Shown: in pieces, positions 8,181 through 23,768 of the stretch
Layout: each line of letters opens with the position of its first letter
How positions within the stretch are numbered: position 1 is the first letter of the stretch
NCBI GenBank assembly: GCA_034189905.1
Contig: JAXHTY010000022.1
Location: 53,795-77,794, forward strand
Source of the DNA: Thermodesulfobacteriota bacterium
GTDB taxonomy: Bacteria; Desulfobacterota; Desulfobacteria; Desulfobacterales; Desulfosudaceae
DNA: 24,000 bases
Direction of reading: 5' to 3'
Position numbers and translations under genes: made by a program
The notes under the pieces: generated by a model
Told to the model about the DNA's origin: nothing
Databases searched by the model: none
What the model saw: the letters and a program-made list of their open reading frames with translations, nothing else

Positions 8181-8229
8181 ACCCGATCCGGCACAAACCG
8201 CAAAAGACAGGAAATAAGCAGAACAGACA

Positions 8230-10611: not shown

Positions 10612-10687
10612 CCGACATAATAGGCACAGGCATGACAGACCACTGGGACTCTCACGAACTCAACCTGGAACTTTACGGAAGCCACAG

Positions 10688-12991
10688 ATGAACGTAAGGA
10701 AAAGCCATTCCGCCCAATGGCAGATTTTTGTCATCTCCGGCGTTATTATCTTGCTGGGGACTCTGATCTATGCCAACACTTTTCATGTACCATTTATTTT
10801 CGATGATATCCACAATATTAAAGAGAACAGTCTTATCCGACTGACAACGATCACACCGGGAAAAATTCTTCAACTGAAAAACAGCCCTTGTCCGCATCGG
10901 CTCATAGCAAACTTTTCCTTTGCGTTAAATTACTTTTTTCATGATTATAACGTATTCGGGTATCACCTTATAAATCTGATCATCCACCTGATCACCGGTT
11001 TGCTGGTCTTTTTGACTGCCCGGCAGACCCTGCGCCTTACCGGTACCGATGACCGCTTTATTCCGGCATTGGCCGCCGTCCTCTGGCTGGTCAACCCTGT
11101 TCATACGCAGTCGGTCACATACATTGTTCAGCGGATGACAGCCATGGCCACCATGTTCTATCTGCTGGCCCTGTTCCTTTATATTAAGGCGCGGCTGATG
11201 CAGCACGATTTGCCGAAGAAAAAGGCTGCCCACATACTGCTGTTTGCCGGATGCGCCTTAGCCGGCCTGCTGGGGCTGGGCTCAAAAGAAATAGCCGCCA
11301 CGCTGCCGCTGTTTCTGTTTATTTATGAATGGTTTTTTTTTCAGGACCTGAATGGGCAGTGGGTGAAGCAACGACTTTTATGGATTGGCATTGCATGTCT
11401 GGCATTCTTGGCCATTGCCGCCGTCTACCTGGGAACCAGTCCGGTTGAAAAAATCCTGAAAGGTTATGGTCACAGAGACTTTACGCTAGGCCAACGCCTC
11501 CTCACAGAACCAAGGATCATACTTTACTATCTCTCGCTTCTTGTCTTCCCTCACCCGGACCGCCTGAACCTCAATTACGACATCAGTGTCTCCACATCCC
11601 TCATTGATCCTGCTACGACGCTGCTTTCAATTCTTACCCTATCCGGCCTTTTTGTCGTCACCATGGTTGCGGCCCCCAAAAACCGCTTGCTCGCTTTTGC
11701 AATCCTCTGGTTTTTGGGAAACCTGGTTATCGAATCCTCTTTTCTCAGCCTTGAACTCATTTTTGAACACCGTACCTACCTGCCTTCAATATTCATCATT
11801 ATTGTATTAACCACTGCCCTGCTGACATCCTCCCGCATCCGCAATACCGGCATTACAGCATTGTGCGTGACGATAGTTGTCTTCTGTTACTGGACGTATC
11901 AGCGCAATCAGGTTTGGGCCGATAAGGTTTCTCTGTGGAAAAACTGTTCAGACAAAGCGCCGGGGAGCCCAAGGCCATATATTAATATGGCTTCCGCACT
12001 GATGGAATCCGGGGATATGGCCCGGGCCAAAACGCTTTTTCAGAAAGCACTTCAACTCGACCCATCTAACGATGCAGCCCATAAGGAATATGGCCTGCTG
12101 CTCCTTGAAGAGGGTTTTACCGATCAAGCAATTGATCACTTTCGCAAAAGCATCGTCCTGAACCCACGGAATATTGCTGCTTATAATAATCTGGGATATG
12201 CCTTGCTTCGCAAGAACCAAACCCCAAAAGCGATTTCGGCGCTTGAAAAAGCCCGACATTTGAATCCTTACATCCCTGAAGTTCATTATAATCTTGCGAA
12301 AGCCTATCTGCAGAATGATCACACAACAACAACTTTTGACACAGCAGAAAAAGCTTTCCAGGAGGCCATTTCTCTCGATCCTCTCTATTACAAAGCATTT
12401 AACGATCTGGGCGCCTTATATCTTTTAACCGGACAAACAGACAAAGCTGTTCACGTTTTGAACGAGGCCATTCGCATCAATCCCGAGTATGCCCCGGCCC
12501 ATAAGAACATGGCTTTAACACTGAACCGTCAGGGGAACGCTTCCCAGGCACTCCATCATATACTTGAAGCTTGTCGTATTGCCCCGAACATCCCCGGTTT
12601 CCATATAACTGCCGGGGATATGCTGATGACACAGGGGAAAACGGAAGATGCCCAACATCATTACAGCAAAGCATTGTCTCTGGCCGGTGGGTCTCCCCGG
12701 CAAATTCTGCGTATCGGCAATCATTATGCCGGCGCAGGCCTGTATTCACAGGCAGTTCAAGCGTATCAAAAACTGGCCGCCTTAATGCCGGACAATCCCG
12801 CTGTTTTTTATAATCTTGCATGCCTGTATGCAAAACAAAAAAACCCGGAACAGACAATAGCCTATCTTGAAAAGGCCATCAATAATGGATATGATGATGT
12901 GGATCACCTGAAAACCGACAAGGACCTTGAGATTATCAGAAACACGGAATTCTACAAGAACATTCTACATAAATTGCAGGGTCGAAAATAA
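10688..12991 (+). CDS. Paralog 5 of 6: GT-C (TMTC-like) membrane domain with a TPR domain and cap (767 aa)
   Basis: Track ORF. GGAAG lies 6 nt upstream of the ATG. Motifs: FIFDD, PHRLIANFSFALNYFFH, NPVHTQSVTYIVQRMTAMATMFY, SKEIAATLPL, YEWFFF, FEHRTYLPS. Cap: FYNLACLYAKQKNPEQTIAYLEKAINNGYDDVDHLKTDKDLEIIRNTEFY. Confidence 0.9.
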   Translation: MNVRKSHSAQWQIFVISGVIILLGTLIYANTFHVPFIFDDIHNIKENSLIRLTTITPGKILQLKNSPCPHRLIANFSFALNYFFHDYNVFGYHLINLIIHLITGLLVFLTARQTLRLTGTDDRFIPALAAVLWLVNPVHTQSVTYIVQRMTAMATMFYLLALFLYIKARLMQHDLPKKKAAHILLFAGCALAGLLGLGSKEIAATLPLFLFIYEWFFFQDLNGQWVKQRLLWIGIACLAFLAIAAVYLGTSPVEKILKGYGHRDFTLGQRLLTEPRIILYYLSLLVFPHPDRLNLNYDISVSTSLIDPATTLLSILTLSGLFVVTMVAAPKNRLLAFAILWFLGNLVIESSFLSLELIFEHRTYLPSIFIIIVLTTALLTSSRIRNTGITALCVTIVVFCYWTYQRNQVWADKVSLWKNCSDKAPGSPRPYINMASALMESGDMARAKTLFQKALQLDPSNDAAHKEYGLLLLEEGFTDQAIDHFRKSIVLNPRNIAAYNNLGYALLRKNQTPKAISALEKARHLNPYIPEVHYNLAKAYLQNDHTTTTFDTAEKAFQEAISLDPLYYKAFNDLGALYLLTGQTDKAVHVLNEAIRINPEYAPAHKNMALTLNRQGNASQALHHILEACRIAPNIPGFHITAGDMLMTQGKTEDAQHHYSKALSLAGGSPRQILRIGNHYAGAGLYSQAVQAYQKLAALMPDNPAVFYNLACLYAKQKNPEQTIAYLEKAINNGYDDVDHLKTDKDLEIIRNTEFYKNILHKLQGRK

Positions 12992-12993
12992 AA

Positions 12994-15183
12994 ATGCAAA
13001 CGACAAAAACAGATAGCCACTGGCAAACACTTGCCGTACTTGCAGTAATGATTGCCCTCATCATTCTGATTTACGCCAACGCCCTTGACGCGCCCTTTGT
13101 TTTCGACGACATGCCGAATATAGTCGACAATCCTCATTTACGACTGACCGCCTTCACGCCGGAACGGCTTACCGGGGCAATAAAGGGGCCTTCCGGCAAT
13201 CGGCCCTTTGCATTTTTCTCCTTTGCCTTAAATTACTTCTTTCATGGTTATACTGTAAACGGATATCGCCTTGTAAATCTGATTATTCACCTGATAACCG
13301 GAATGCTGGTCTTTTTGACTGCCCGGCAGACCCTGTACCTCACAGGCACTGACAATCGTTTTATTCCTGTATTTGCTGCCGTTCTCTGGCTGTCAAGCCC
13401 CATTCACACCCAGTCGGTCACATACATTGTTCAGCGGATGACAGCCATGGCCACCATGTTTTACCTGCTGGCCATGTTCCTTTATATAAAAACACGGCTG
13501 GTACAGCGCGATTTTCCGGAAAAAAAGACTATCCCGATACTCTTGTTTACCGGATGTGCAGTGGCTGGGATTCTAGGGCTGGGTTCAAAGGAAATAGCCG
13601 CCACGCTACCGCTGTTTCTGCTGCTGTATGAATGGTTCTTTTTCCAGAATCTGAACGGGCAGTGGATGAAACAACGGCTTTTGTGGATTTGTATTGCATG
13701 CGTAGCCATTGTTGCCATTGCCGCCATTTACCTTGGCACAAGCCCGATTGAGAAAATACTTGGTATGTACGATAAGCAAGATTTTACCATGGGCCAACGC
13801 CTGCTCACCCAGCCGGGAGTCGTGCTCTACTATCTGTCCCTTTTGCTGTTCCCCCATCCCGGCCGCCTGAATCTGGATTACGATTTTCCGGTATCAACAC
13901 TTGTGAACCATCCGCTTACGACAGCCCTGACCATCCTTGCTATTGCCGGCCTCCTGATGGGCGCGATTTCCCTGGCCAAAAAACATCGACTCCTCTCATT
14001 TGCCATTCTGTGGTTTCTGGGCACCCTGGTTGTTGAATCATCGTTTTTGGGACTTGCCCTGGTGTTTGAACACCGCATCTACCTGCCTTCGGTATTTGTG
14101 CTGATTGCATTAACCGCTGCCCTGCTAACACCTTCACACTCCCGCCGCGTCGGTATTGCACTATTGTGCACCGCCACTGTTGTCTCTTGTTTCTGGACAT
14201 ACCAGCGAAACCGGATATGGACCGACAGTATTTCACTCTGGAAAGACTGTATCGCCAAAGCACCCGATAATGGACGACCGTACAACGGCCTGGGCGGGGC
14301 GTTTCAGGAAGCCGGGGACTATGAAAAAGCGCAGTTAAACTTTGAAAAAGCCATTCATCTCAACCCTGACGATTACAGGGTGAACAATAACCTGGGGGCC
14401 CTCCTGCTTGGCACCGGTAAACCAATGGACGCGATACCTTATTTTCAGAAAGCCCTGACAATCAACCCTGAATATCATGAGGCCTATTGCAACCTGGGCG
14501 TCGCGCTGGATCGGATAAACCAGCAAGAGGAAGCAATCCGGTCTTTTGAAAAAGCTTTGGCGATCTATCCCGATTATGCCGAGGCCCACAACAACCTCGG
14601 GTCCACTCTGCTGAATACCGGAAAGCCACAGGCGGCAATATTCCACTTTAAAAAAGCCGTCCGTATCAATCCTTTATATCCCGAAGCTTACAGCAACCTC
14701 GGCCTGGCCCTGATGAACCAGAAAAAGGTCGACCAGGCCATCGGATATTATCAAAAATCCCTGAAACTTTCACCGGAATCAGCCAACACCCATTTTAACC
14801 TCGGCTCGGCGTATTTCATGAAAGGCGACATTCCAAAAGCGATCCATCACCTGGAACAATCGGCTGCCATCAACCCCGCTTCCATTCTTGTGCTGAACAA
14901 CCTGTCCACCCTTTATACCATGGACAAGCAGTACGACAAGGCGATTGCAATACTGGACCAAATTGAAGCGCAACTGCCGGCGAACCCTACGGTCCACTAT
15001 AACAAGGCCTGTGTTTACTCGCTGGCCGGTCGTAAAGAGGCTGCTGTCACAAGCCTGGAAAACGCCATCCGCCTCGGCTATAATAAATGGCACCAGATAA
15101 GGACCGATTCCGACCTGGAAAACATACGGGATACAGCCTATTATAAAAAGCTTGAACAAGCAGTACTTTCTTCTTCGCCATAG
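12994..15183 (+). CDS. Paralog 6 of 6: GT-C (TMTC-like) membrane domain with a TPR domain and cap (729 aa); mosaic relative to the other paralogs
   Basis: Track ORF, starting 2 nt after the stop of paralog 5. Motifs: FVFDD, GNRPFAFFSFALNYFFH, SPIHTQSVTYIVQRMTAMATMFY, FEHRIYLPS. Cap: HYNKACVYSLAGRKEAAVTSLENAIRLGYNKWHQIRTDSDLENIRDTAYY. Confidence 0.9.
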   Translation: MQTTKTDSHWQTLAVLAVMIALIILIYANALDAPFVFDDMPNIVDNPHLRLTAFTPERLTGAIKGPSGNRPFAFFSFALNYFFHGYTVNGYRLVNLIIHLITGMLVFLTARQTLYLTGTDNRFIPVFAAVLWLSSPIHTQSVTYIVQRMTAMATMFYLLAMFLYIKTRLVQRDFPEKKTIPILLFTGCAVAGILGLGSKEIAATLPLFLLLYEWFFFQNLNGQWMKQRLLWICIACVAIVAIAAIYLGTSPIEKILGMYDKQDFTMGQRLLTQPGVVLYYLSLLLFPHPGRLNLDYDFPVSTLVNHPLTTALTILAIAGLLMGAISLAKKHRLLSFAILWFLGTLVVESSFLGLALVFEHRIYLPSVFVLIALTAALLTPSHSRRVGIALLCTATVVSCFWTYQRNRIWTDSISLWKDCIAKAPDNGRPYNGLGGAFQEAGDYEKAQLNFEKAIHLNPDDYRVNNNLGALLLGTGKPMDAIPYFQKALTINPEYHEAYCNLGVALDRINQQEEAIRSFEKALAIYPDYAEAHNNLGSTLLNTGKPQAAIFHFKKAVRINPLYPEAYSNLGLALMNQKKVDQAIGYYQKSLKLSPESANTHFNLGSAYFMKGDIPKAIHHLEQSAAINPASILVLNNLSTLYTMDKQYDKAIAILDQIEAQLPANPTVHYNKACVYSLAGRKEAAVTSLENAIRLGYNKWHQIRTDSDLENIRDTAYYKKLEQAVLSSSP

Positions 15184-15478: not shown

Positions 15479-15507
15479 TTGACAAAAAAACAGGATGTGG
15501 TAAAAAT
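15479..15507 (+). promoter_or_regulatory. Sigma70 promoter candidate upstream of the 15713 gene
   Basis: Consensus -35 TTGACA (15479-15484), a 16-17 nt spacer, then the A/T -10 TAAAAAT (15501-15507). A-tracts and T-tracts lie just upstream. The predicted start near 15513 gives a ~200-nt leader. Confidence 0.5.
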
Positions 15508-15591: not shown

Positions 15592-15682
15592 TTAGAGAAA
15601 AAGCCAAACCCCGGGCAACCGGGGGGCGGAAAGCCACGAATCCATAAGGACATTCCCTGTGGAGAGTCGGGCCGCCTCTGGG
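15592..15682 (+). promoter_or_regulatory. Structured 5' leader resembling a c-di-GMP-I (GEMM-I) riboswitch aptamer
   Basis: 15603-15635 reads GCCAAACC CCGG GCAA CCGG GGGGCGGAAAGCC. That is a CAAACC block, a 6-bp GC stem (15609-15614 / 15619-15624) capped by the GNRA tetraloop GCAA, then a CGGAAAGCC block. It has the same length and order as the Vc2 aptamer segment as I remember it (GGCAAACC AUUC GAAA GAGU GGGACGCAAAGCC). A second hairpin follows: CCACG/UGUGG (15634-15638 / 15658-15662) enclosing AAUCC-AUAA-GGAcAUU. An outer pairing is possible between UUUAGAG (15591-15597) and CUCUGGG (15676-15682). Not verified with a covariance model. Confidence 0.45.
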
Positions 15683-15712: not shown

Positions 15713-16237
15713 ATGAAAAAATTATTAGTAGCGTTAGTCGTAGGTGCATTAATGGTTCTGCCGATGTCTGCAATGGCTATGGATTCTATTTCAGATGCTG
15801 ATCTCGGCGGCATCACCGGTCAGGCCGGTGTTACCATCGCCTTTGGCGGCAATCAGACCACAGAAGTGACTTTTGACGCCGTATCCTGGGGCGATCCCGA
15901 TGGCATGGGTGGTGCTAACCAGACTGCCGGTTGGGTCATTTTTGACGGCACAATTGGCATCTCCGTAATCATCGCCGACGGTGAGATGCTGACCATTGAC
16001 GTTGCAACAGCTAATGGTGCTGCATACAGCGTTGGCAATGTTACTATTGCTGACGGCACGACCTTTGTCGCCATTGGCCTGCCCAGCCAGACCATCAATG
16101 TGGACACACCGTCTACGCTGGCCATTGGCCTTGGCACCAGCGCGGGTAGCATTGCCGGCACAATCGGTCTGCTGAACCTGGAAAACCTGAGTGTTTCCCC
16201 GGGTACGCCTGACGCGCTCTACATTTACGCACATTAA
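15713..16237 (+). CDS. Small secreted, extremely acidic Gly/Thr/Ala/Ile-rich protein (174 aa) with a Sec signal peptide followed by a double-glycine-leader-like motif; candidate major structural subunit
   Basis: Track ORF. A strong SD, GGAGGGAG (15699-15706), precedes the ATG. Signal peptide: MKKLLVALVVGALMVLPMSAMA | MDS. Motif ISDADLGGITGQ at nt 15788-15823. After the signal peptide there is no Lys, Arg or Cys, against 12 Asp and 3 Glu. Four N-x-S/T sequons are present (NQT, NQT, NVT, NLS). It shares VSWGDPDGMG and a C-terminal LYIYAH strand with the 16410 product (VYWGDADGFG, IYVYES). Confidence 0.9.
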   Translation: MKKLLVALVVGALMVLPMSAMAMDSISDADLGGITGQAGVTIAFGGNQTTEVTFDAVSWGDPDGMGGANQTAGWVIFDGTIGISVIIADGEMLTIDVATANGAAYSVGNVTIADGTTFVAIGLPSQTINVDTPSTLAIGLGTSAGSIAGTIGLLNLENLSVSPGTPDALYIYAH

Positions 16238-16280
16238 TTCAAGTTCTTAATGAATATTATGCGTAATTGCACAAAAATGT

Positions 16281-16318
16281 CCCCTGGAGTGGAATCTCCC
16301 CATTCCAGGGGATTTTTT
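16281..16318 (+). terminator. Rho-independent terminator after the 174-aa gene
   Basis: The stem CCCCTGGA (16281-16288) pairs with TCCAGGGG (16304-16311). It is followed by A and T6 (16312-16318). Confidence 0.8.
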
Positions 16319-16321
16319 CCC

Positions 16322-16350
16322 TTTACAGACCAGCATTTTTGTTGTATAGT
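16322..16350 (+). promoter_or_regulatory. Sigma70 promoter for the 16410 gene
   Basis: TTTACA (16322-16327), a 17-nt spacer, then TATAGT (16345-16350). It sits directly after the terminator and ~55 nt upstream of the ATG at 16410. Confidence 0.6.
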
Positions 16351-16409
16351 TAAATACATACAATAAAATGTGGCTATCAGGAGAGGACAGAAATGGAGAA
16401 CATATCAGC

Positions 16410-17408
16410 ATGAACACCAAGAAATGTTTTTCATCCAGCCTGCCTGCTCTTTTTCTCATTATTGTCGGATTATCAGTTCTATCTTCTGTTGTTCCCACCG
16501 CCCATGCTGTGACACTGCTTTCAGACAAAACCATTGCCCAGATTTACGGCGGTCAGCAGGTTATTATTGAAGTTGAAAACGGGTCAGCCGCTTTTTTTAC
16601 CATTGATGATGTTTACTGGGGTGATGCAGACGGCTTTGGCAATGCCACCAGCCCCGGCTATATCGATATTCAGGTCCCGTATAAAAATTTTCAATATGAC
16701 GCATTTCGATATCAGTTCAACACCAAGGAAGACGCCGATGCCTTCATTGAAGCTCTGGATGACCTGACCTATATGGATATAGAGGTCGAGGATACGGAAT
16801 TTTTCTACAAAGTCCCCAATGCCCAGGATATCGGCATAAACGATACCACTGGCAGAGAGATTGATTATGTAATTGTTACCACAGACAGATCGGTCCCTAG
16901 CAATATTATACAAAACCACAGAGGAACTGTCATCAGCCAGGAAATCCAATTTACCATTTCTTTCCCCGACGAAGAAGACCCATACCGGAAAACGTACGAA
17001 ACCGTCACCTATGACGCGGCCAATGATGAGTTTGTCTTCGATTCAGCAGACTACGGTCAGTTCATCACTGAAGTTCACAATACGGGCAATCAGCCCATTC
17101 GGGACAGTGAAGGCAACATAATTGTGCCGACAGACACAACTTACTTACAAGCTCGCACTGCCACGCTCCAAGTGGATAGCCCCATGATCGCCTTTTCCAT
17201 TGCTCTGATTCCGGAGGGTGATGTGCCCATTCCCGATAGATTCATGCAGAACCCCACCAGCACGCCGAGTCACTACCCTGATTTTGACGCTGCCAATGAC
17301 CCAGGAAGGCAACTGGGATACTTCGGCATTTCTGACCTCCAGGTGCGAATCGGCGGCGGAGAACCCATCTATGTCTACGAATCAGATATTGTCTATCCTT
17401 TTGAATAA
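16410..17408 (+). CDS. Secreted acidic protein (332 aa from the ATG at 16410) with a Sec signal peptide followed by a double-glycine-leader-like motif; larger paralog of the 15713 product
   Basis: The track ORF starts at 16368. I prefer 16410 (MNTKKCFSSSLPALFLIIVGLSVLSSVVPTAHA | VTL) because it gives a canonical n-h-c signal peptide and has GGAGA ~10 nt upstream. Motif LSDKTIAQIYGG at nt 16518-16553. D+E clearly outnumber K+R. The WGDADGFG block and the C-terminal PIYVYES strand are shared with the 174-aa protein. Confidence 0.85.
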   Translation: MNTKKCFSSSLPALFLIIVGLSVLSSVVPTAHAVTLLSDKTIAQIYGGQQVIIEVENGSAAFFTIDDVYWGDADGFGNATSPGYIDIQVPYKNFQYDAFRYQFNTKEDADAFIEALDDLTYMDIEVEDTEFFYKVPNAQDIGINDTTGREIDYVIVTTDRSVPSNIIQNHRGTVISQEIQFTISFPDEEDPYRKTYETVTYDAANDEFVFDSADYGQFITEVHNTGNQPIRDSEGNIIVPTDTTYLQARTATLQVDSPMIAFSIALIPEGDVPIPDRFMQNPTSTPSHYPDFDAANDPGRQLGYFGISDLQVRIGGGEPIYVYESDIVYPFE

Positions 17409-17721
17409 TAACTAGCGCTTTATTAAACAACTCCCATACCCTTTATAACTTTCTCCCGGTATACAATATCCAAAGCGTGTTTTATCCCAATCACTCCTTG
17501 TCTCCATTTTTCCCGCCCTTTTGTGCTCCCGACTATCCTTTCATACGACCAAACAAGATTAATACCTATTTTCATCAATCCGGACGTGTTGCTAAAACTG
17601 ACGGCTGATGGGCTCCTGTGTTTATATCGGTACAACCTCTCAGGCCTTTTGGAACAGCATCAATCTCAACATTTTCGATCAAAATACCTTGCGTGGATAA
17701 AATTTCTAAAAAATTGTATTT

Positions 17722-17749
17722 TTGCTTTACAAGCCCATTTTCATATGAT
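17722..17749 (+). promoter_or_regulatory. Candidate sigma70 promoter for the C39-peptidase operon
   Basis: TTGCTT (17722-17727), a 16-nt spacer, then TATGAT (17744-17749). An AT-rich tract lies upstream. Confidence 0.35.
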
Positions 17750-17760
17750 ATTTGGTTAAT

Positions 17761-17777
17761 AGTAAACAATGTTTACT
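17761..17777. promoter_or_regulatory. Perfect 8-bp inverted repeat AGTAAACA-a-TGTTTACT; operator-like site just downstream of the candidate -10
   Basis: AGTAAACA at 17761-17768, A at 17769, TGTTTACT at 17770-17777. It lies 12 nt after the -10 hexamer and 41 nt before the ATG at 17818. Confidence 0.35.
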
Positions 17778-17817
17778 GTTTGATATTGGGGGATCTAAAG
17801 GCAGGAGTCTTCATAAA

Positions 17818-18576
17818 ATGCATATATTGGTTGCTTTTGTTATCGCTGTTGCGCTCATCTCCGGATTTAAGCCTATCAAGGAAGTACCGGACAACGAAAT
17901 TCGAATCGCCGTCAATACCGATGGGGGGATTGTCCCCAACCTTCCGCCTGAAGTTGAAATTCGTCATGAAATAGGACCGGCGTCGGAAATCAACTTTAAA
18001 CATATTGTCACGCAGCAATTTGATTATAGCTGCGGCTCCGCAGCCCTGGCCACCATACTGCGATACCAGCTTGGGGAAAAATTCACTGAGACCCAGGTTA
18101 TTGCCGGCCTTTTCCGGTATGGCGACAAGGAACAGGTTGAAAAGAAGCGCGCGTTTTCACTGCTTGACATGAAGAAGTTCGTGGGCGTTCTGGGCTACAA
18201 CGGGGTGGGCTACCGGGCCGATATAGAAGACCTCAAAGATCTGAACATGCCATGCATTGTCCCCATCGAAGTGTTTGGTTACCGACATTTTACCGTTTTC
18301 AAGGACGTTTATAGAGGGCACGTCTTTCTTGCCGACCCGTATCGGGGGAATTCCAGTTATACCATCGATCAGTTCGAAAAAATATGGCACCAGAATGTTA
18401 TTTTTGTCGTGTATCCCAGAGGGGAAGAGCAGCTTTCACTGCTGGAATTATCCCATCGTGACCTTCGATTTATTGACGAGGCCATGGAATACGACATCCT
18501 CTTTAATGGTCAGCCGCCTTTGGACAGCCTGCCGCCGGAACCGGACACAGGCGGAAGACAGCGCTTCAGGTATTAA
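17818..18576 (+). CDS. Stand-alone C39-family (bacteriocin-processing type) cysteine peptidase with an N-terminal signal/anchor helix and no ABC-transporter domain (252 aa from 17818)
   Basis: The track ORF starts at 17752. I prefer the ATG at 17818 (AGGAG at 17803-17807, 10-nt spacer), which gives MHILVAFVIAVALISGF as an N-terminal hydrophobic helix. C39 signature blocks: QQFDYSCGSAALATIL (oxyanion Gln; Cys codon at 18031-18033), FSLLDMKKFVGVLGY, MPCIVPI, GYRHFTVF (His), VFLADPYRGN (Asp), FEKIWHQNVIFV. Confidence 0.85.
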   Translation: MHILVAFVIAVALISGFKPIKEVPDNEIRIAVNTDGGIVPNLPPEVEIRHEIGPASEINFKHIVTQQFDYSCGSAALATILRYQLGEKFTETQVIAGLFRYGDKEQVEKKRAFSLLDMKKFVGVLGYNGVGYRADIEDLKDLNMPCIVPIEVFGYRHFTVFKDVYRGHVFLADPYRGNSSYTIDQFEKIWHQNVIFVVYPRGEEQLSLLELSHRDLRFIDEAMEYDILFNGQPPLDSLPPEPDTGGRQRFRY

Positions 18577-18621: not shown

Positions 18622-20289
18622 TTGAATAGAAAAAATAAAACGATGACCGTATGCATGGCATTAACGCTTCTTCTCTGCCAACTTGCATTCGCAAACCAGC
18701 CCTCTCAAACAGGAGAAAGGCAGTTGATGACGGATATTTCTGTCGATGAACTGGCAACCATCATCGGCAGAGGATTTATTGCCAGCCTGAGCCCCGAGGA
18801 AATTGAAGAGATCAACGCCCGCGGCATCACCGCCCCCGATATTCTGGATATGAAAACTAAAGATCTCGCCCGTATCAGTGCCCGCGGTGTCACATATGTC
18901 TTTGATACATCCAAAGTCACCGATGAGGACCTTCAGGATATCGCCGGTCGCGGAACAGTCCAGGAAATCGGTCGCTCGCCTTACTCTGTACAGGTTGGAG
19001 TCTTTAAGGTAAAGGAGAATGCGCTTTCCCTGCTTAAGGAGCTGGAGGGGAAAGGGTATGAACCTTATATTTTCCAGACCATTGGCGATGCCGATGAAAA
19101 ACTGTTTGCAGTCCGGCTTGGCGACTATGAAGATGTAAAAGACGCCTACGCCGCGGTAACGCACTTCAAATCAAAAGAAAAAAAACCGGCTGTGGTCACC
19201 TATATCAACTCCCTGAAAACCGTTCAAAAAGCAGATCTTATGCAGGAGGAGGCCACCACGAGACTTTCTGATGAATTGTCCGCTGCGGACTTCGAAGATG
19301 AAAACCTGAACTCCCTTTACAGGGAATTAACCGCATTACGCAAAGAGGTGGATCAACTCAAGGCTGAAGCCGAAGCCCGTGAAAAGCTTCGCATGACAGA
19401 AGCCGAGGAGGAAAAAGAAGAGGAAGAAATCCTCTCTGCCGCCGGCAGGGAATACACCATGGCACAAAAAGGGACCCTGACCTTTGATTATTCATTTGGA
19501 TATACGTTTAACACTTATGAACAGGTCAGTGTGGCCTCCACAGCGACATCCGCAACCTCTTACCAGGTTGACCATGTCAACGGCCATACCCTGAGAAACA
19601 GCGTTGCCACGGGATACTCGCTGTTTGACAACCTCAAGGTAACCGCCTCTGTTCCGTTTGTGTACAAATATCAAAAACTGGGCCGTATCGGTTCCAAAGA
19701 TGTCAGTGACATCGGCGACATCTCGCTGGGCGCGAACTGGCAGCCAATCAAAGCCGGCGGAAACTTCCCCGCAACCATCCTTACAACCAATATCAACATA
19801 CCTACCGGGCGAAGTCCTTATGAAATCAATCCCGACGTTGACATTGCTACCGGTTCGGGGGTTTATTCCGCCACTGTGGGTTTTACCGCCAGCAAAACCA
19901 TTGATCCCATCGTGGCGTATGGCGGTATGGGATATACCCACTCCCTTGAAGAATCCGGCCTGAACCAGCAATTGTCTTCCGGCAACGTTCTTGACAGTGT
20001 TGAACCCAAGGGTGTTATCAGTACCAGCCTGGGCGTAGGCTATGCCATGTCCTACAAGGCCTCCATCTATACTAGCTTCTCTTATTCCTACCTGTTTGGC
20101 GCAACCTATAAATATGCGAATGGCAGTGATGCCTCCACCGGAAATTCAGCAACCGCCAGCCTAGTGGTGGGAACGGGCTGGAAAATATCGCCTGAGCGGA
20201 CTGTCAGCATAAACCTGGGCCTGGGGTTGACCAATGAGGCATCCGACTTTGCCTTCTCCTTCAGGCTCCCCTTTGATTTTGAGATGTAA
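18622..20289 (+). CDS. Outer-membrane protein with five parts: signal peptide, four motif repeats, a SPOR peptidoglycan-binding domain, an acidic coiled-coil linker, and a C-terminal beta-barrel of the MetA/phenol-degradation transporter type
   Basis: Track ORF with a TTG start at 18622, preceded by GGGAGG (18609-18614, 7-nt spacer). Signal peptide: MTVCMALTLLLCQLAFA | NQ. SPOR-like block: YSVQVGVFKVKENALSLLKELEGKGYEPYIFQ...LFAVRLGDYEDVKDAYAAV. Linker: LRKEVDQLKAEAEAREKLRMTEAEEEKEEEE. The last ~270 aa show alternating beta-strand patterns with the DIGDISLG, NIPTG and ATGSG motifs I associate with that barrel family, and end FSFRLPFDFEM. Confidence 0.85.
   Translation: MNRKNKTMTVCMALTLLLCQLAFANQPSQTGERQLMTDISVDELATIIGRGFIASLSPEEIEEINARGITAPDILDMKTKDLARISARGVTYVFDTSKVTDEDLQDIAGRGTVQEIGRSPYSVQVGVFKVKENALSLLKELEGKGYEPYIFQTIGDADEKLFAVRLGDYEDVKDAYAAVTHFKSKEKKPAVVTYINSLKTVQKADLMQEEATTRLSDELSAADFEDENLNSLYRELTALRKEVDQLKAEAEAREKLRMTEAEEEKEEEEILSAAGREYTMAQKGTLTFDYSFGYTFNTYEQVSVASTATSATSYQVDHVNGHTLRNSVATGYSLFDNLKVTASVPFVYKYQKLGRIGSKDVSDIGDISLGANWQPIKAGGNFPATILTTNINIPTGRSPYEINPDVDIATGSGVYSATVGFTASKTIDPIVAYGGMGYTHSLEESGLNQQLSSGNVLDSVEPKGVISTSLGVGYAMSYKASIYTSFSYSYLFGATYKYANGSDASTGNSATASLVVGTGWKISPERTVSINLGLGLTNEASDFAFSFRLPFDFEM
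18727..18957 (+). repeat. Four tandem protein-level repeats of an acidic-Leu/Ile-x-x-Ile-x-(Gly/Ala)-Arg-Gly motif in the periplasmic N-terminus of the SPOR barrel protein
   Basis: The four repeats are SVDELATIIGRG, SPEEIEEINARG, KTKDLARISARG and TDEDLQDIAGRG (aa 36-112). The R-G pairs are spaced 17, 21 and 22 residues apart. Compare TDKQLQDVQGG, SDKTIAQIYGG and SDADLGGITGQ in the three secreted proteins. Confidence 0.7.
18979..19206 (+). other. SPOR-like peptidoglycan-binding domain within the 18622 gene
   Basis: aa 120-195 follow the beta-alpha-beta-beta pattern YxVQVGxF...A...L...G....v......FAVRLGxY....A typical of SPOR domains. Confidence 0.6.
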
Positions 20290-20330: not shown

Positions 20331-22070
20331 ATGCGATTGAAAACGCAGACAAGAACAGCACCAATTCTTTTCATAACGGCAGTCGTGTTCCTTCTTTGCA
20401 TTAATGAGAACCGTCTGTGCCATGCCGCCTTTTTTGAAAACATTGCCGTCCATGCCAAGGCCATTTCACTGGCTAATTCATGTGTTGCCTATCCGCCCGG
20501 CCATATGGCAATCCATTACAATCCTGCCGGTCTTTCCAACCTGCATGCCGGTAAACAGCTCAGCCTGGGCCTGCTCACAGCGGATCTTTCCATTGAATCG
20601 AGCTTTAATGCAGATCCGGATTTTGACGGCTGGCTGGACACATTCAGTAATCAGGATGACCCCCTGGACGGCACGAACAGCAGCGTTGAAGGCTGGCATC
20701 TATATATGCCGATACTGGGCGAACAGGATACCGACATCATTGGTGTGGACACGCCCGCCGGGTTTCTTCCGGCTGCGCCGTTCCCGTTAGGATTGTCATA
20801 CCGGGAGCCAGGATCCCGATGGACATTCGGATTTGGTGCCTATGCCCCGACGGTTGGCGGTTATTACCGGTCGGATGCGGATCCCGGCCGCTATAACGGG
20901 CGGGCAGTATCAATGCAACAAATAACATACGCTGCGCCGTCTGTCAGTTACCAGCTCACAGACACACTATCGCTCGGCCTGACCGTCAGCTTAAGCCAGG
21001 GCGCCACTCAGATGGATCTGGATATGCGCATGCCCAACGACCTGATGGCTCTGACCAAAACACTTGGCGATGCAACAGAAGGATTGACCATTCCGATTGT
21101 CTCTCAGTTAACCCTTCCCGCCCCGTGGTTTGGCGGCGGCATCGGGCCGTATGAGGATTTTGCCAACCTGAACATCAAAAGCCGAGACGACTATTGTCCC
21201 GGATATAATATCGGCCTTTTATGGGAACCCAAAAACTGGTTTTCTTTTGGTGCCAATTATCAAAGCAAGGTCCGTATGGAACAGCAGGGTACATATAAAT
21301 TCAGTTATAATGAGAACTGGCAGCGTATGGTAAACTGGTTTGGCAGTTCCGTGCTGTTATTGCCCATTTCAGTCATGCTTGACCTTCCCTATAATGCAAC
21401 CCCCTATCAGGCCGGTAACGTTTATATGGATGGATTTGATGCGCCCCAGCGTGTCCAGATGGGGGTTATGCTCAGGCCCTTCAAGCGACTGCGACTGATG
21501 TGTGATGCCCACTGGATCGACTATTCTGAAACAAAAAAATGGACCATTCAATTCGATCAGAACATCCAGGTACTTCAACTGGCAAAACTGGTAGGACACG
21601 CAGACGGTTCCAACAGACTGACCTTGACCCGGGATATGGAAGATGAAATTCATATGAGTTACGGCGCAGAACTCCAGCTACTGGAGTGGCTCTTTTTGCG
21701 ATGCGGCTATGAAGACAGAAAAACATCTGTCAGCCGGCAATATTTCGATGTTATTGCACCCGTCCCGGATCTGGATTTTTACGGTGCCGGCTTAGGCATA
21801 AAACTTAAGAGCGGGGTTGAAATTGACCTGTCTGTGGGCTATCTTGAATCCGAAAGATGGTATGTACCCAATAACACCAGCGACAATCTGAATTCAACCG
21901 ATTTCACAGACGCGGTATACAATCCGTATGGCGGCCTTGATGTGTCCGGTGAAATGGATATTACAGTCGTTGCGGCCAATGTGAGTATGCCGTTTAAATA
22001 TATTTATCGCATCAGCAATATTCTCAAGGATTCATTGGAAAAAACAAAAGAACTCATTCCTTTCCATTAA
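20331..22070 (+). CDS. FadL/TodX/OmpP1-family outer-membrane channel homolog, enlarged (579 aa)
   Basis: Track ORF. AGGAG lies 5 nt upstream of the ATG. A signal peptide ends in CHA | AFFE. The N-terminal hatch-like block AKAISLANSCVAYPPGHMAIHYNPAGLSNL matches the family hallmark (G.A..A...d.....NPAGL). The remainder is rich in amphipathic beta strands with aromatic girdle residues. Confidence 0.8.
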   Translation: MRLKTQTRTAPILFITAVVFLLCINENRLCHAAFFENIAVHAKAISLANSCVAYPPGHMAIHYNPAGLSNLHAGKQLSLGLLTADLSIESSFNADPDFDGWLDTFSNQDDPLDGTNSSVEGWHLYMPILGEQDTDIIGVDTPAGFLPAAPFPLGLSYREPGSRWTFGFGAYAPTVGGYYRSDADPGRYNGRAVSMQQITYAAPSVSYQLTDTLSLGLTVSLSQGATQMDLDMRMPNDLMALTKTLGDATEGLTIPIVSQLTLPAPWFGGGIGPYEDFANLNIKSRDDYCPGYNIGLLWEPKNWFSFGANYQSKVRMEQQGTYKFSYNENWQRMVNWFGSSVLLLPISVMLDLPYNATPYQAGNVYMDGFDAPQRVQMGVMLRPFKRLRLMCDAHWIDYSETKKWTIQFDQNIQVLQLAKLVGHADGSNRLTLTRDMEDEIHMSYGAELQLLEWLFLRCGYEDRKTSVSRQYFDVIAPVPDLDFYGAGLGIKLKSGVEIDLSVGYLESERWYVPNNTSDNLNSTDFTDAVYNPYGGLDVSGEMDITVVAANVSMPFKYIYRISNILKDSLEKTKELIPFH

Positions 22071-22094: not shown

Positions 22095-23768
22095 ATGCAA
22101 AAAAAACTGCATGCATGCATGTATTTCTGTCTTATTGCCTTCTTTGCCAATATCACCCCAACGGCCTTTGCAACTACCCTTTCAGAAAATTCTGTAAAAT
22201 TGGGAACCGCGTCAAAAAGTGAAAAAATCTACGCTCAGTCCCTCAAAATCAGCGATGACAAGCAGCACATTGCATATGTATCAAAAAATAAAACAGGCAT
22301 GCGGGTCTGGAAAGATGGTACTCCGGGACCAGTTTATCAGGGCATTTCCATTGAAACGCCTGTGTTTGCACCGGGAAGTGATAAGGTCTGTTACATTGCG
22401 ATTGAAGCAAATCAAATGAGAGCGGTTATTGACGGGGAAAAAGGACCTGTTTTTCAGGCAATCGACAGCCTGACCTTTTCTTATGACGGGACAAGGACAG
22501 GATACCGCTACATTAATAATGCAGAAAAAATGCAAGTCATGATTGACAACAAGCCCGGTCCGGAGTTTGCCAAAATTGCGGATGAACCAGGAATTGTATT
22601 CTCACCGGATGGAAAGCATTTTGCCTATGTGGGCATCAGCAGCACCGGGTCTCATATTCTTGTCAAAAACCATAAAAAACAACAAGCATTTGACGATATC
22701 CAGACCGTCTTGTTCTCTCCTGACGCCAGACATCTTGCCATCGTCGCCAAGCAGGCAGATATGTGGCATGTGATTTTCGACGGGAAAACCGGCAATCCGT
22801 ATAAAAAAATTACGCAACTCTCTTTTTCGCCGGATTCAAATCACATCGTCTATACCGCTCAAAAGCAGAAGCAGTTTGTTGTTGTAAAAGACCATAATGA
22901 ACTGCCATCCGGCCAATCCGCCTTGTCTCCGCAATATTCCCCTGACGGTAAAACACTAGTCTATGCTATGGGAAAAAACAATAAATGGCACCTGGTCGTT
23001 AATGGCAAAGCGGGGCCGCCGGTAGAAAAACCGGGAAAAATCGGTTTCTCTGAAAAAGGGAGTCATTTTGCATACTCGGCATTAATGGACGATCAGTGGA
23101 CGGTTTTTTTTGATAACAAAAAAGGGCCGCTTTTCGACAATATCACCTATCTGGATTTCTCACCATATGACCCTACACTTGTCTATATTGCCCACAAGAA
23201 AGACCACCAGTGCATTGTCAAAAACCAGATCCCTGATGTCTTTTATGATTCGGTCGGCTTGCCAGTGTTTTCTGGAAAACCAAACGGCCATTTCGCTTAT
23301 GTTGCACTGGACACGCAGCAGCACAAAACATTCATAATTGAAAATATCGCCGGCAGTACTAAAAAACACGAACCATTTGATATGATCGGTATTCTAATGG
23401 CCGATAAAAAAGGCGATCCCTTTTATGCCGCCCAGCGTCCGTTTTTCTCTGCAGATGGCCGGCATATGGCCTATCCTGTCATCCACAACAAGAAAAGTCT
23501 CATGGTGGTAGATAACAAACCCCAGAAACGGTTTGATGTGGTTTCCAGGCCATATTTTTCTCCTGATGGCACTCATGTCGCGTATATGGCAAAGACCAAT
23601 GACAGATGGTTTGTAGTGGTGGACGGTAAAACAGGCAAAAAAAGCTTTGACAGTTTTCTCAAGGAGGGAGGTATCGTTTTTGATGGACCGGACCGTTTTT
23701 CCGTGCTTGCCTTAAACCTGCCGGGGCCTGATTTCTACCGGCTTACGGTGAACATCAAATCGAATTAA
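22095..23768 (+). CDS. Periplasmic repeat protein (557 aa) built from about a dozen 37-38-aa FSPDGxHxAY-type repeats; likely beta-propeller or beta-solenoid
   Basis: Track ORF. Signal peptide: MQKKLHACMYFCLIAFFANITPTAFA | TT. Repeat anchors: FSPDGKHFAYVG, FSPDARHLAIVA, FSPDSNHIVYTA, YSPDGKTLVYAM, FSEKGSHFAYSA, FSPYDPTLVYIA, FSGKPNGHFAYVA, FSADGRHMAYPV, FSPDGTHVAYMA, plus degenerate copies. Each is followed by W-x-V-(V/I)-x-D-G-K-x-G-P-x-F-D. Confidence 0.85.
   Translation: MQKKLHACMYFCLIAFFANITPTAFATTLSENSVKLGTASKSEKIYAQSLKISDDKQHIAYVSKNKTGMRVWKDGTPGPVYQGISIETPVFAPGSDKVCYIAIEANQMRAVIDGEKGPVFQAIDSLTFSYDGTRTGYRYINNAEKMQVMIDNKPGPEFAKIADEPGIVFSPDGKHFAYVGISSTGSHILVKNHKKQQAFDDIQTVLFSPDARHLAIVAKQADMWHVIFDGKTGNPYKKITQLSFSPDSNHIVYTAQKQKQFVVVKDHNELPSGQSALSPQYSPDGKTLVYAMGKNNKWHLVVNGKAGPPVEKPGKIGFSEKGSHFAYSALMDDQWTVFFDNKKGPLFDNITYLDFSPYDPTLVYIAHKKDHQCIVKNQIPDVFYDSVGLPVFSGKPNGHFAYVALDTQQHKTFIIENIAGSTKKHEPFDMIGILMADKKGDPFYAAQRPFFSADGRHMAYPVIHNKKSLMVVDNKPQKRFDVVSRPYFSPDGTHVAYMAKTNDRWFVVVDGKTGKKSFDSFLKEGGIVFDGPDRFSVLALNLPGPDFYRLTVNIKSN

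Follow-up and report, generated by a model that had tools for sequence, protein, structure and literature searches.

In the Pseudomonas Fap amyloid system, FapD is a periplasmic C39 peptidase whose catalytic Cys is needed for Fap secretion, and FapF exports protein (PMC5557850). According to the authors, Fap proteins have no canonical C39 recognition sequences (PMC5557850); since the system works without canonical leaders, this class of peptidases must act on something else as well. Rouse et al. noted GG/GA motifs in the linker of FapF and suggested FapD cleavage there. FapF is the characterised relative of FilC, which belongs to the Acinetobacter Fil operon (FilA-F, "putative pilus system"). 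No functional characterisation of the Fil system was found in the literature searched.

The window studied here is a stretch of 24,000 nucleotides from a Thermodesulfobacteriota MAG of sulfate-reducer type. Judged by sequence, its gene cluster is a distant relative of both the Acinetobacter Fil operon and the Pseudomonas Fap system, and its cargo has a predicted two-part N-terminal address, i.e., a Sec signal and then a leader. The genes are ordered as FilA-like substrates, FilB/FapD-like C39 peptidase, FapF-like barrel and FadL-like barrel, which is the order of FilA (DUF6160), FilB (C39), FilC and FilD in Acinetobacter, and the NCBIfam models NF050077-NF050080 were the best matches for all four window proteins. 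Scores well under the curated cutoffs (36.5 vs 220, 188.9 vs 475, 189 vs 630 and 329.6 vs 970) mark the relationship as a distant one. In contrast to the Fil operon, a beta-propeller protein takes the place of FilE and FilF.

Leaders behind the Sec signals

The 12-residue motif of double-glycine type behind a Sec signal is a real and general observation. All three proteins in question had a Sec signal followed 3-4 residues on by the 12-residue motif in the register of double-glycine leaders, and the translations were identical to those described in the original prediction. Signal-peptidase I sites were assigned by the -3/-1 rule and conservation. The first protein, a FilA-like/DUF6160 secreted acidic protein of 174 aa (15713..16237, plus strand; Pfam DUF6160 37.6 bits, cutoff 27), begins with a signal peptide of aa 1-22 (15713-15778) ending in PMSAMA, and after the predicted cut comes the 15-residue leader MDSISDADLGGITGQ (15779-15823). 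Its body downstream of the leader is beta-rich and begins with AGVTIAF, it contains no Lys or Arg, and the leader was conserved in its 58 homologues. The second, a divergent DUF6160-type protein of 332 aa (16410..17408, plus strand), has a signal peptide of aa 1-33 ending in VPTAHA, followed after the predicted cut by VTLLSDKTIAQIYGG (16509-16553). The N-terminal ~65 residues matched a custom DUF6160 HMM (E 2e-8 in the locus ORF set; 29.2 bits in a single-sequence alignment), which also matched the C-terminal strand weakly. The sole homologue, P0060, has kept LSDKTIAQIDGG and the same synteny. The third protein (1..1026, minus strand) extends past the window edge and comprises 372 aa in full; its signal peptide of aa 1-44 ends in ATNLYA, and the predicted cut is followed by GMDVMTDKQLQDVQGG (nt 894-847, minus strand). 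Mature forms of all three proteins are acidic, with pI 4.0-4.2.

A strict regex of the shared pattern gave five matches in the six-frame translation of the window, i.e., the three known sites and a further two, previously overlooked, within the N-terminal part of the 18622 gene. Residue-shuffled frames gave 0.13 matches on average and two at most (200 shuffles); as the regex was built from the three sites, only the two extra matches are independent. Outside the window, the motif was conserved in approximately 100 distinct DUF6160/FilA-type N-termini (96 profiled), and likewise among the 25 proteins of a second family, that of the third protein, which is not otherwise related to the first. Among the 96 distinct DUF6160-type N-termini, position -7 was L/M in 98%; under a regex which preset -12 and -4 as hydrophobic and restricted -2 and -1 to a few residues, -4 was mostly V/I, -2 was G in 85 and A in 11, and P1 (-1) was Gln in 82, with R, G, A, K, E and S as variants. 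The family of the third protein had the form AG, predicted cut, MDVMT[DN]xELxxxxGG in those 21 of its 25 members from which an N-terminus was extracted, except that positions -2/-1 read AG in two of them and M replaced L in three, and its consensus is the canonical M-T-x-x-E-L-x-x-x-x-G-G. Alignment of the two families by hhalign covered 34 columns only (E 1e-4), spanning the end of the signal peptide, the leader and the first strand, with GQ placed on GG. The N-terminal peptide of the third protein gave bacteriocin-leader profiles as top matches, with the generic leader model TIGR01847 at its cutoff of 15.7 bits, and matched in addition the ComC, cerein, lactococcin G-beta, EntF and Bacteriocin_IIc leader models; the DUF6160 peptide had no match to TIGR01847.

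Counted from the predicted signal-peptidase site, 110 of 137 leaders measured 14-16 residues, which comes close to a minimal GG leader. It was also present on further non-DUF6160 proteins adjoining C39 genes (1472 in locus L004, 5004 in L007, 3943 in L010 and 12043 in L085). On these sequence grounds, the leader behaves as a portable double-glycine-type module and not as an oddity of three proteins. The profile of predicted mature N-termini showed the leader, but with P1 mostly Gln and with positions +1 to +5 (A/D-G-V/I-T/S-I) conserved at least as strongly, G at +2 being found in 94 of 96. Such a junction is atypical between leader and cargo, unlike that of classical substrates, and would fit an uncleaved structural or recognition element as well. 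In AF2 models of the 174-aa protein (overall moderate, pLDDT 78, pTM 0.50) beta strands start at residue 40, and the leader has pLDDT ~60 with a short helix at 28-32; the model for the family of the third protein was of low confidence (pLDDT 44).

Peptidase and gene cluster

The stand-alone C39 cysteine peptidase is encoded at 17818..18576 (plus strand), with AGGAG 10 nt ahead of its ATG at 17818. A profile search assigned it to Pfam Peptidase_C39 (65.1 bits, cutoff 22), and in NCBIfam it matched FilB (1.2e-55) and FapD (2.9e-37), both under cutoff. The full catalytic set described for it held across 40 stand-alone homologues, where Q66, C72 and H157 were invariant and D173 nearly so. Its N-terminus is a hydrophobic export/anchor segment, and homologues also have N-terminal export signals. 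There were 902 clusters of homologues at E<1e-10. The closest solved structures are PCAT1 and LahT150.

The leader is genomically tied to this FapD/FilB type of peptidase. A DUF6160 gene was located within 10 kb in 57 of 86 C39-bearing loci, 80 of which were C39-centred, with a median gap of 190 bp. When only loci with full flanks were counted, the fraction was 45/60, leaving about a quarter without a leader-bearing neighbour. All five loci retrieved via a leader-bearing protein (four DUF6160, one of the 332-aa type; contigs of 14 kb to 6.3 Mb) were C39-FilC-FilD clusters. Marinobacter, where substrate and peptidase genes are unlinked, is an apparent exception in both directions, yet the same genomes hold both, as found at the genome level for Marinobacter only, by accession series.

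A c-di-GMP-I-family riboswitch aptamer of the GGC variant model (15594..15680, plus strand; Rfam RF03167, 60.3 bits, gathering score 59, E 3.7e-12) precedes the first substrate gene (15713), with 33 nt in between, and the same clan was found upstream of DUF6160-type genes in loci L001, L004, L005, L007, L014 and L085. This c-di-GMP-type riboswitch probably acts as the switch for expression of the major subunit, in keeping with a role in biofilm or surface structure. Directly after the 174-aa gene follows a terminator-like hairpin with a T-run (16279..16322, plus strand; 14-bp stem, 8 GC pairs, TTTTTT), a consensus match only. Downstream of the peptidase gene, the plus strand encodes a FilC/FapF-like outer-membrane barrel with a SPOR domain (18622..20289; NCBIfam FilC 1.7e-55, FapF 8.9e-23; Pfam SPOR 5e-12). 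Its periplasmic N-terminus contains four leader-like repeats ending in G/A-R-G (aa 36-111, nt 18727-18954, plus strand), a region which scored 15.5 bits with TIGR01847. Such repeats were also seen in loci L001, L083, L084 and L003, and those of D. oleivorans end in GQG/AQG, resembling its own DUF6160 leader. The next genes on the same strand encode a FilD-like outer-membrane protein of the FadL/OmpP1/TodX family with conserved synteny (20331..22070; Pfam Toluene_X 9.9e-44; NCBIfam FilD 2.8e-98, under cutoff), and a PD40/WD40 beta-propeller protein with signal peptide (22095..23768; Pfam PD40 2e-13), found at the same position in the Desulfobacterota relatives L001, L083 and L084. No ABC transporter was found among the scanned large ORFs of the window. 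The label "transporter-less" missed the two barrels immediately downstream.

Six paralogues separate the gene of the third leader-bearing protein from the Fil-like ones (1463..15183, plus strand), each with a polytopic membrane domain of ~400 aa and C-terminal TPR repeats recognised by TPR matches; their N-terminal domains had no match in Pfam. This block flanks the cluster in loci L001, L083, L084, L085 and L087, and in L087 it is accompanied by GT_STM0557_N and Dpy19-type glycosyltransferase matches.

Possible roles of the leader

We propose that the Sec signal carries the protein over the inner membrane, and that the cut by signal peptidase I exposes the ~15-residue leader as a new N-terminus, with hydrophobic residues at -12, -7 and -4, the pair S/T-D at -11/-10, and an end formed by Gly (-2) plus Gln or Gly (-1). 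The exported, probably membrane-tethered peptidase would then bind the amphipathic leader and cut after G-Q/G-G, freeing a mature protein with a conserved beta-strand (AGVTI in DUF6160) as its first element. The FapF-like and FadL-like barrels might then take over the mature protein and export it or assemble it on the surface, a step proposed by analogy, as secretion of FapC requires FapD. The tandem leader-like repeats of the channel's periplasmic arm probably occupy the same binding site of the peptidase, and could tether it to the channel or be cut themselves. Taken as a whole, from Sec export over leader removal to handover, and together with the reading of the cluster as a Fil/Fap-type outer-membrane secretion or assembly cluster, this proposal is in our judgement about evenly balanced between right and wrong.

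It is rather unlikely that the leader instead serves the Fil machinery as a short linear signal for docking or targeting and stays in place, the true peptidase substrate being FilC or another component. It might then be bound by the peptidase, as a ligand that is not cleaved, by the channel arm, or by the beta-propeller or TPR proteins. The tandem repeats in FilC, the suggestion of Rouse et al. for the FapF linker, the strong conservation of +1 to +5, and the existence of some FilBCD operons without an adjacent DUF6160 gene would agree with such a signal. However, the FilC repeats are confined to the Desulfobacterota branch and absent from FilC of Pseudomonas, Marinobacter and Burkholderiales, yet DUF6160 proteins of the latter three retain the leader; the invariant catalytic residues and a register exactly that of cleaved GG leaders also count against this reading.

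We regard it as quite improbable that the motif merely opens the conserved structure of the DUF6160 fold (for instance as a cap at the N-terminus, or as a donor strand in fibre assembly), with no functional relation to C39 and a convergent likeness to GG leaders. The family with an (S/T)D..L...TGQ motif, mentioned in the original prediction, proved to be DUF6160, whose Pfam model includes the motif (positions 24-44 of 96), and the unbroken conservation across TGQAGVTI and the Gln, not Gly, at P1 would suit a fold element. Against this, the same module heads several other passenger types as well as a family otherwise dissimilar to DUF6160, the linker of a different protein contains tandem copies of it, which would not be so for a fold-specific element, AF2 leaves it unpacked against the beta body, and its linkage to C39 genes is tight. 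Finally, a hydrophobic-substrate uptake system on FadL-/COG4313-type channels, with accessory surface or biosurfactant-like acidic proteins and a peptidase for general periplasmic maturation or quality control, is very improbable in spite of the FadL/TodX membership of FilD, the precomputed Phenol_MetA_deg (COG4313) matches of FilC relatives and the many hosts that degrade hydrocarbons (Marinobacter, Alcanivoracaceae, Oleiphilaceae, Thalassolituus, Desulfatibacillum alkenivorans, Desulfosudis oleivorans, Macondimonas, Alkanindiges and a tar-biofilm MAG), since the characterised FilC relative FapF is a protein exporter, one leader type on several paralogous cargo proteins and the probable riboswitch control of the cargo gene better fit a secreted structural product, and no catabolic genes were found in the window.

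Comparison with known systems

As in Pseudomonas Fap, the gene of a stand-alone Sec-exported C39 peptidase adjoins that of a FapF-type outer-membrane barrel. Unlike Fap, the cluster lacks Q/N-rich amyloid repeat subunits of FapB/FapC type, its proteins score far under the FapD and FapF cutoffs, it adds the FadL-like barrel, the SPOR domain and the beta-propeller protein, and its cargo has canonical-looking C39 recognition sequences. The literature searched contained no account of secreted proteins that neighbour such peptidases and bear a leader of canonical appearance. The leader-bearing proteins are a concrete, testable candidate substrate for the free-standing periplasmic C39 class. A periplasmic C39 peptidase as such is already known from FapD (PMC5557850), and GG processing in the periplasm is no novelty; the original prediction is supported in part, in that the GG-type leader linked to C39 stands, whilst the "transporter-less" label needs mending.

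The PCAT/AMS double-glycine leaders (ComA, LagD, PCAT1, LahT) share this register, in which positions -12, -7 and -4 are hydrophobic, -8 is acidic or polar and -2/-1 are small, and their peptidases are of the same Pfam family. They replace the Sec signal, whereas the leader in the window comes after it, and the C39 peptidase here is predicted to face the periplasm and lacks a fused ABC exporter. Furthermore, P1 is mostly Gln in DUF6160-type leaders and classical C39 sites are GG, GA or GS, and the cargo here consists of beta-rich proteins of 15-36 kDa as opposed to small peptides. Secondary tags read after Sec export are known from PEP-CTERM/exosortase, GlyGly-CTERM/rhombosortase, the T9SS C-terminal domain and LPXTG/sortase, and in type V pilin maturation an N-terminal strand is removed by an Arg/Lys-specific protease. 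The window's proteins are alike in concept, with a second tag for a dedicated peptidase and with processing or export genes adjoining. The sorting tags are C-terminal, whereas the window's tag, of bacteriocin type, follows immediately on the signal peptide at the N-terminus.

Leader-bearing proteins

The open reading frames and translations of the three leader-bearing proteins were reproduced as the original prediction had described them. In the 174-aa protein (15713-16237, plus strand) the signal peptide MKKLLVALVVGALMVLPMSAMA is followed by the 15-residue leader MDSISDADLGGITGQ and by a body beginning with AGVTIAF. The 332-aa protein (16410-17408, plus strand) has a signal peptide ending in SSVVPTAHA, the leader VTLLSDKTIAQIYGG and a body beginning with QQVIIEV, and the third protein (P0211, 372 aa in full, minus strand, start at 1026) has the corresponding parts LMATNLYA, GMDVMTDKQLQDVQGG and EVLSIDI. 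The mature proteins are all acidic, with pI values of 4.0-4.2. The mature 174-aa protein (15779-16234) contains 15 Asp/Glu and zero Lys/Arg (pI about 4), and would thus escape standard tryptic proteomics. It is a member of DUF6160 (PF19657; 37.6 bits, gathering score 27). The 332-aa protein gave no match in Pfam; a custom DUF6160 HMM matched its first approximately 65 residues (E 2e-8) and, weakly, its C-terminal strand. The protein is a divergent DUF6160 member carrying an insertion of about 200 residues; LSDKTIAQIDGG is kept in its sole homologue. The third protein was not counted as a DUF6160 member, because the leader alone aligns. Public annotation of 15713-16237 (P0001, 152 aa) starts at the Met of MDSISD and loses the entire signal peptide, and the annotated starts of two proteins of the third family, P0219 and P0224, likewise lie inside the leader. 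Automated start calls mask the Sec signal in both families.

A strict regular expression derived from the three sites gave five matches in the six-frame translation of the window, compared to a mean of 0.13 and a maximum of 2 in residue-shuffled frames (200 shuffles). Three of the five were the predicted sites, and the other two, overlooked in the original prediction, fell near the N-terminal end of the 18622 product. As the expression was built on the three cargo sites, only these two extra matches are independent.

Fifty-eight homologues of the 174-aa protein carry a signal peptide, two to four residues and then the pattern h-(S/T/N)-x-x-(D/E)-(L/M)-x-x-(V/I)-(T/S)-G-Q-A-G-V-T-I, in which Q37 and G39 are invariant. 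A leader profile was made from 96 distinct DUF6160-type N-termini, taken from the homologues and from C39-centred loci. Counting back from the residue before the putative cut (-1, or P1), we observed M/L/I/V at -12, S/D/T/N at -11, D/A/E at -8, L/M at -7 (98%), V/I/L/M at -4, G (85) or A (11) at -2, and Q (82), R (6), G (3), A (2), plus K, E and S at -1; the expression used for extraction had pre-set -12, -7 and -4 to hydrophobic residues and -2/-1 to a few residues, and the spread is to be read within those limits. Past the putative cut, position +2 was G in 94/96 N-termini. P1 lay 14-16 residues from the best -3/-1 signal-peptidase site in 110/137 cases. Paralogues from one and the same locus swap G, Q and R at -1, e.g., VTGQ and VTGG in locus L003, VSGQ and VSGG in locus L072. 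Such swapping would fit a permissive S1 pocket.

The third family comprises 25 proteins separate from DUF6160. In the 21 members with an extractable N-terminus, AG is followed by MDVMT(D/N)xELxxxxGG, with AG at -2/-1 in two of them and M for L in three. Profile-profile alignment (hhalign) of this family with DUF6160 covered 34 columns, i.e., the end of the signal peptide, the leader and the first strand (E 1e-4, probability 58%); GQ was set on GG, and nothing further aligned. Additional leader carriers from outside DUF6160 were found beside C39 genes, among them 1472 in locus L004, 5004 in L007, 3943 in L010 and 12043 in L085. On these comparisons the leader is a conserved, portable module.

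As reference for bacteriocin-type leaders we used TIGR01847 (generic double-glycine leader) and the PF10439 leader, with the consensus L-S-x-x-E-L-x-x-I-x-G-G. The 25-mer of the third protein scored 15.7 bits against TIGR01847, which is exactly the cutoff, and also matched the ComC, lactococcin G-beta, cerein 7B, EntF and Pfam Bacteriocin_IIc leader models; these models are short and the E-values marginal (0.01-0.15), and all of the top matches were GG-leader families. The peptides from the 174-aa (DUF6160, Q at -1) and 332-aa proteins gave no match to the bacteriocin-type leader models. A cut after T-G or A-G was considered less probable than the canonical register, since the hydrophobic spacing, the end of the TIGR01847 alignment on GG and the ungapped hhalign result favour the latter.

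The AF2 model of the 174-aa protein (46 sequences; pLDDT 78, pTM 0.50) consists of the signal helix, a short helix at residues 28-32 amid a stretch with pLDDT of about 60, and a beta body from residue 40, a layout which puts the leader outside the predicted fold. No fold match to this model was found in the PDB. The model of the third family (24 sequences) had a mean pLDDT of 44 and was uninterpretable.

The C39 peptidase and its gene cluster

The C39 identity of the 17818-18576 product, proposed from its catalytic Gln, Cys, His and Asp, was confirmed by the Pfam profile search (Peptidase_C39, PF03412; 65.1 bits, cutoff 22), and these residues are present. PCAT1 and LahT150 were the top PDB matches. 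Q66, C72 and H157 are unchanged throughout 40 stand-alone homologues, and D173 is nearly invariant. The ATG is preceded by AGGAG 10 nt upstream, and the protein has a hydrophobic N-terminal segment, the place of which is taken by a classical signal peptide in more distant homologues. Stand-alone C39 peptidases of the periplasm are widespread, with 902 clusters (50% identity) matching at E<1e-10. In agreement with the original prediction, no ABC transporter was found among the large open reading frames scanned in the window, nor in the syntenic loci.

The window originates from a Thermodesulfobacteriota MAG with locus tags SWH61_141xx. Comparison to NCBIfam gave a weak FilA match for 15713 (174 aa; 36.5, cutoff 220), FilB (1.2e-55; 188.9, cutoff 475) and FapD (2.9e-37; 128.1, cutoff 330) for 17818, and FilD (2.8e-98; 329.6, cutoff 970) for 20331, a protein of the FadL/TodX family. 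The 18622 product has a SPOR domain and a FilC barrel (1.7e-55; 189, cutoff 630), with FapF (8.9e-23; 80.7, cutoff 700) as another match. All these scores fall well short of the curated cutoffs, and the cluster is thus a distant relative of Acinetobacter Fil and Pseudomonas Fap and a member of neither. The order FilA-FilB-FilC-FilD is found in the window (15713, 16410, 17818, 18622, 20331) and recurs in L001 (another MAG), L083 (a 2.7-Mb contig), L084 (Desulfosudis oleivorans Hxd3) and L085 (another delta-type contig), and in a shorter form in L086 (Pseudomonas).

Linkage of leader and peptidase was observed from both sides. A genome scan with a C39 alignment yielded 80 loci from Desulfobacterota, Pseudomonas, Marinobacter, Oleiphilaceae, Alcanivoracaceae and Burkholderiales. 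A DUF6160 match was located within 10 kb of the C39 gene in 57/86 C39-bearing loci, with a median gap of 190 bp and 46/57 within 1.5 kb; where at least 5 kb was available on both sides, a DUF6160 neighbour was present in 45/60. Desulfatibacillum alkenivorans has six DUF6160 paralogues at one C39 locus. From the cargo side, 5/5 loci retrieved via a leader-bearing protein (four of DUF6160, one of the 332-aa type; contigs of 14 kb-6.3 Mb) were C39-FilC-FilD clusters. The third-family gene adjoins a block of TPR paralogues and lies further off, about 17 kb from the C39 gene in the window and about 30 kb on the 2.7-Mb contig.

Cargo homologues lacking a C39 neighbour, which the original prediction had named as a point against itself, do exist. 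A DUF6160-centred metagenome scan gave 16 loci with long flanks and a perfect leader in which no C39 gene lay within 10 kb; the four representatives looked up were all Marinobacter, and in this genus both genes co-occur. Marinobacter is also the main genus where FilBCD operons occur without an adjacent DUF6160 gene. In the Marinobacter loci (L031-L055 and L099-L137) the DUF6160 genes encode 274-340 aa ending in VYGH and lie more than 10 kb from filBCD, and the same genomes contain DUF6160 and C39 genes, as indicated by paired accession series (ARM84989/ARM83817, AZR39895/AZR42658 and EDM49714/EDM47816) and by the same 4,632,059-bp contig. The linkage is thus broken in the genus, with co-occurrence kept; outside it the two are direct neighbours. 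Chance resemblance of the leader motif was rejected, since the motif is conserved, recurs in unrelated proteins and is linked to the C39 gene.

The FilC-like channel protein (18622 gene) itself carries four tandem leader-like repeats in its periplasmic N-terminal arm, between the signal peptide and the SPOR domain (aa 36-111; 18727-18954). These are MTDISVDELATIIGRG, LSPEEIEEINARG, MKTKDLARISARG and VTDEDLQDIAGRG, with ends GRG or ARG, and the region scored 15.5 bits against TIGR01847. The FilC of L083 (14018-15967) has at least seven such repeats, and they occur also in L001 (7233-9005). In D. oleivorans FilC (L084, 12341-14530) the repeats have GQG or AQG as their last residues (MTQAELDGIVGQG, VSPEELEKIQGQG) and closely mirror the DUF6160 leader of the same organism, ISDADLDGISGQAG. 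The repeats are limited to the Desulfobacterota branch and are absent from FilC of Pseudomonas, Marinobacter and Burkholderiales.

Fil-like C39-FilC-FilD clusters (loci L018-L082 and L099-L137) were strikingly frequent in hydrocarbon-degrading taxa, e.g., Marinobacter, Alcanivoracaceae, Oleiphilaceae, Thalassolituus, Bermanella, Macondimonas, Alkanindiges, Desulfatibacillum alkenivorans, Desulfosudis oleivorans and a tar-biofilm MAG. The FilC-like and FilD-like barrels are both from families known for passage of hydrophobic compounds. A PD40/WD40 beta-propeller protein with a signal peptide (22095-23768, plus strand), encoded next after the FadL-like gene, keeps this place in Desulfobacterota relatives; a MalM/DUF4124 protein occupies it in Pseudomonas.

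Regulation and flanking genes

An aptamer of the c-di-GMP-I riboswitch family was found at 15594-15680 (plus strand), 33 nt upstream of the start codon of the 174-aa gene. It was assigned to the GGC variant model (RF03167, clan CL00126; 60.3 bits, gathering score 59), a marginal call, because there was an overlapping match to the parent model, which was suppressed. The same clan occurs upstream of DUF6160-type genes in six relatives: L001 (3457-3543 and 13043-13310), L004 (63-148), L005 (3826-3908), L007 (5762-5855), L014 (14764-14859) and L085 (831-1025, minus strand). In L001 three aptamers stand in tandem (c-di-GMP-I, GGC and UAU), and L085 has a double array. The GGC and UAU variants have no known ligand. 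DUF6160 genes may be a main regulon of these variant classes, and riboswitch control is compatible with a surface or biofilm component under control of a second messenger.

A promoter-like site was located upstream of the 174-aa gene (15479-15507), a strong terminator-like hairpin with a 14-bp stem and a T-run directly downstream of it (16279-16322, plus strand), and another promoter-like site upstream of the 332-aa gene (16322-16350). The promoter-like site and hairpin around the 174-aa gene suggest a separately expressed major subunit, and this first cargo gene may be a separate, highly expressed unit. Between the gene of the third protein and the Fil-like genes, six tandem paralogues (1463-15183, plus strand) each encode a polytopic membrane domain of about 400 aa, which has an F-x-(F/M)-DD motif close to its N-terminal end, followed by TPR repeats at the C-terminus. 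The membrane domains gave no match in Pfam; the architecture suggests a resemblance to GT-C/TMTC-type protein glycosyltransferases, and the cargo proteins, which are rich in Thr/Ser, might be glycosylated. In a relative (L087) the TPR block is located beside Dpy19-like, GT_STM0557_N-like and sugar-nucleotide genes.

Proposed function of the leader and relation to known systems

The reading which we place highest, at roughly even chances and from sequence comparison, is that the FilB-like peptidase removes the leader. After Sec export, signal peptidase I would expose a leader of approximately 15 residues, which FilB would bind and cut after G-Q or G-G. The mature cargo, with its conserved beta strand first, would be exported or assembled via FilC and FilD, and the FilC repeats would tether or regulate the peptidase. 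Four observations speak against cleavage: P1 is mostly Gln, positions +1 to +5 are strongly conserved, some FilBCD loci have no leader-bearing neighbour, and Fap functions without such leaders. The leader could instead be a docking signal which is never cleaved, a reading that we regard as rather unlikely. That it is a purely structural element is still less probable, since it is found as tandem repeats in a linker of another protein, FilC, which is the behaviour of a short linear recognition element and not of a part of one fold. Least of all do we expect the cluster to serve primarily for hydrophobic uptake.

FapD, the sole periplasmic stand-alone C39 peptidase that has been studied, is essential for amyloid export. 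It is exported by Sec and acts in the periplasm, and FapC secretion depends on its Cys38 (PMC5557850; PMC6173800). According to the authors the Fap proteins have no canonical C39 sequences; the first ~70 residues of FapE gave no peptides in mass spectrometry, and GG and GA motifs lie ahead of the FapF barrel (PMC5557850; PMC6173800). The observation of the original prediction was confirmed and its interpretation supported in part. Its leader analogy is sound, and stronger than was known at the time, but its concept of a periplasmic C39 peptidase had already been published for FapD. Literature on the Fil operon is limited to its annotation and its use as a source of vaccine antigens, with FilF studied as a vaccine candidate for Acinetobacter baumannii. 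Our literature search found no paper on processing in DUF6160 or Fil, and none describing a leader of GG type that follows a Sec signal in Fil/Fap systems, the latter being weak evidence given the incomplete coverage. A role of FilA as subunit of a "thick pilus" was not relied on; a review ties thick pili to twitching motility.

Taken jointly, and as a tentative proposal only, a Sec signal plus a bacteriocin-type leader read in the periplasm may form a general two-stage address, i.e., a portable tag for sorting and maturation. Unrelated passengers would be routed via a free-standing C39 peptidase to an outer-membrane export or assembly machine of FapF/FadL type, the tandem mimics of the channel would tether or gate the peptidase, and the cargo genes would be under riboswitches of the c-di-GMP-I family, including the GGC and UAU variants. 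If true, FapD-class peptidases would gain the substrate logic that has long been missing, and a new sorting pathway would be defined. The cargo proteins of sister Fil-like systems, whose near-canonical double-glycine leader follows the Sec signal immediately, are candidate substrates with a predicted cut site and recognition code for periplasmic C39 peptidases, and bacteriocin-type leaders, typical of small peptides of the cytoplasm, would come to include those of structural proteins exported by Sec. The Fil operon, source of the FilF vaccine candidate, would gain a role, and there would be a handle on the surface structures of hydrocarbon-degrading bacteria.

In relation to known systems, none of the three cargo proteins matched the subunits of the Fap functional amyloid (FapB/FapC, with Q/N-rich imperfect repeats). 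The putative Fil pilus system gave the best matches for FilA-D of the window, but below cutoff, which makes the cluster Fil-like and not Fil. Classically, a double-glycine leader opens a cytoplasmic precursor at its very N-terminus and takes the place of a Sec signal, whereas here the motif stands two to five residues behind a Sec-type signal peptide in every case; and a dedicated ABC exporter cuts off the classical leader with its C39 domain, whereas here the C39 peptidase is stand-alone.
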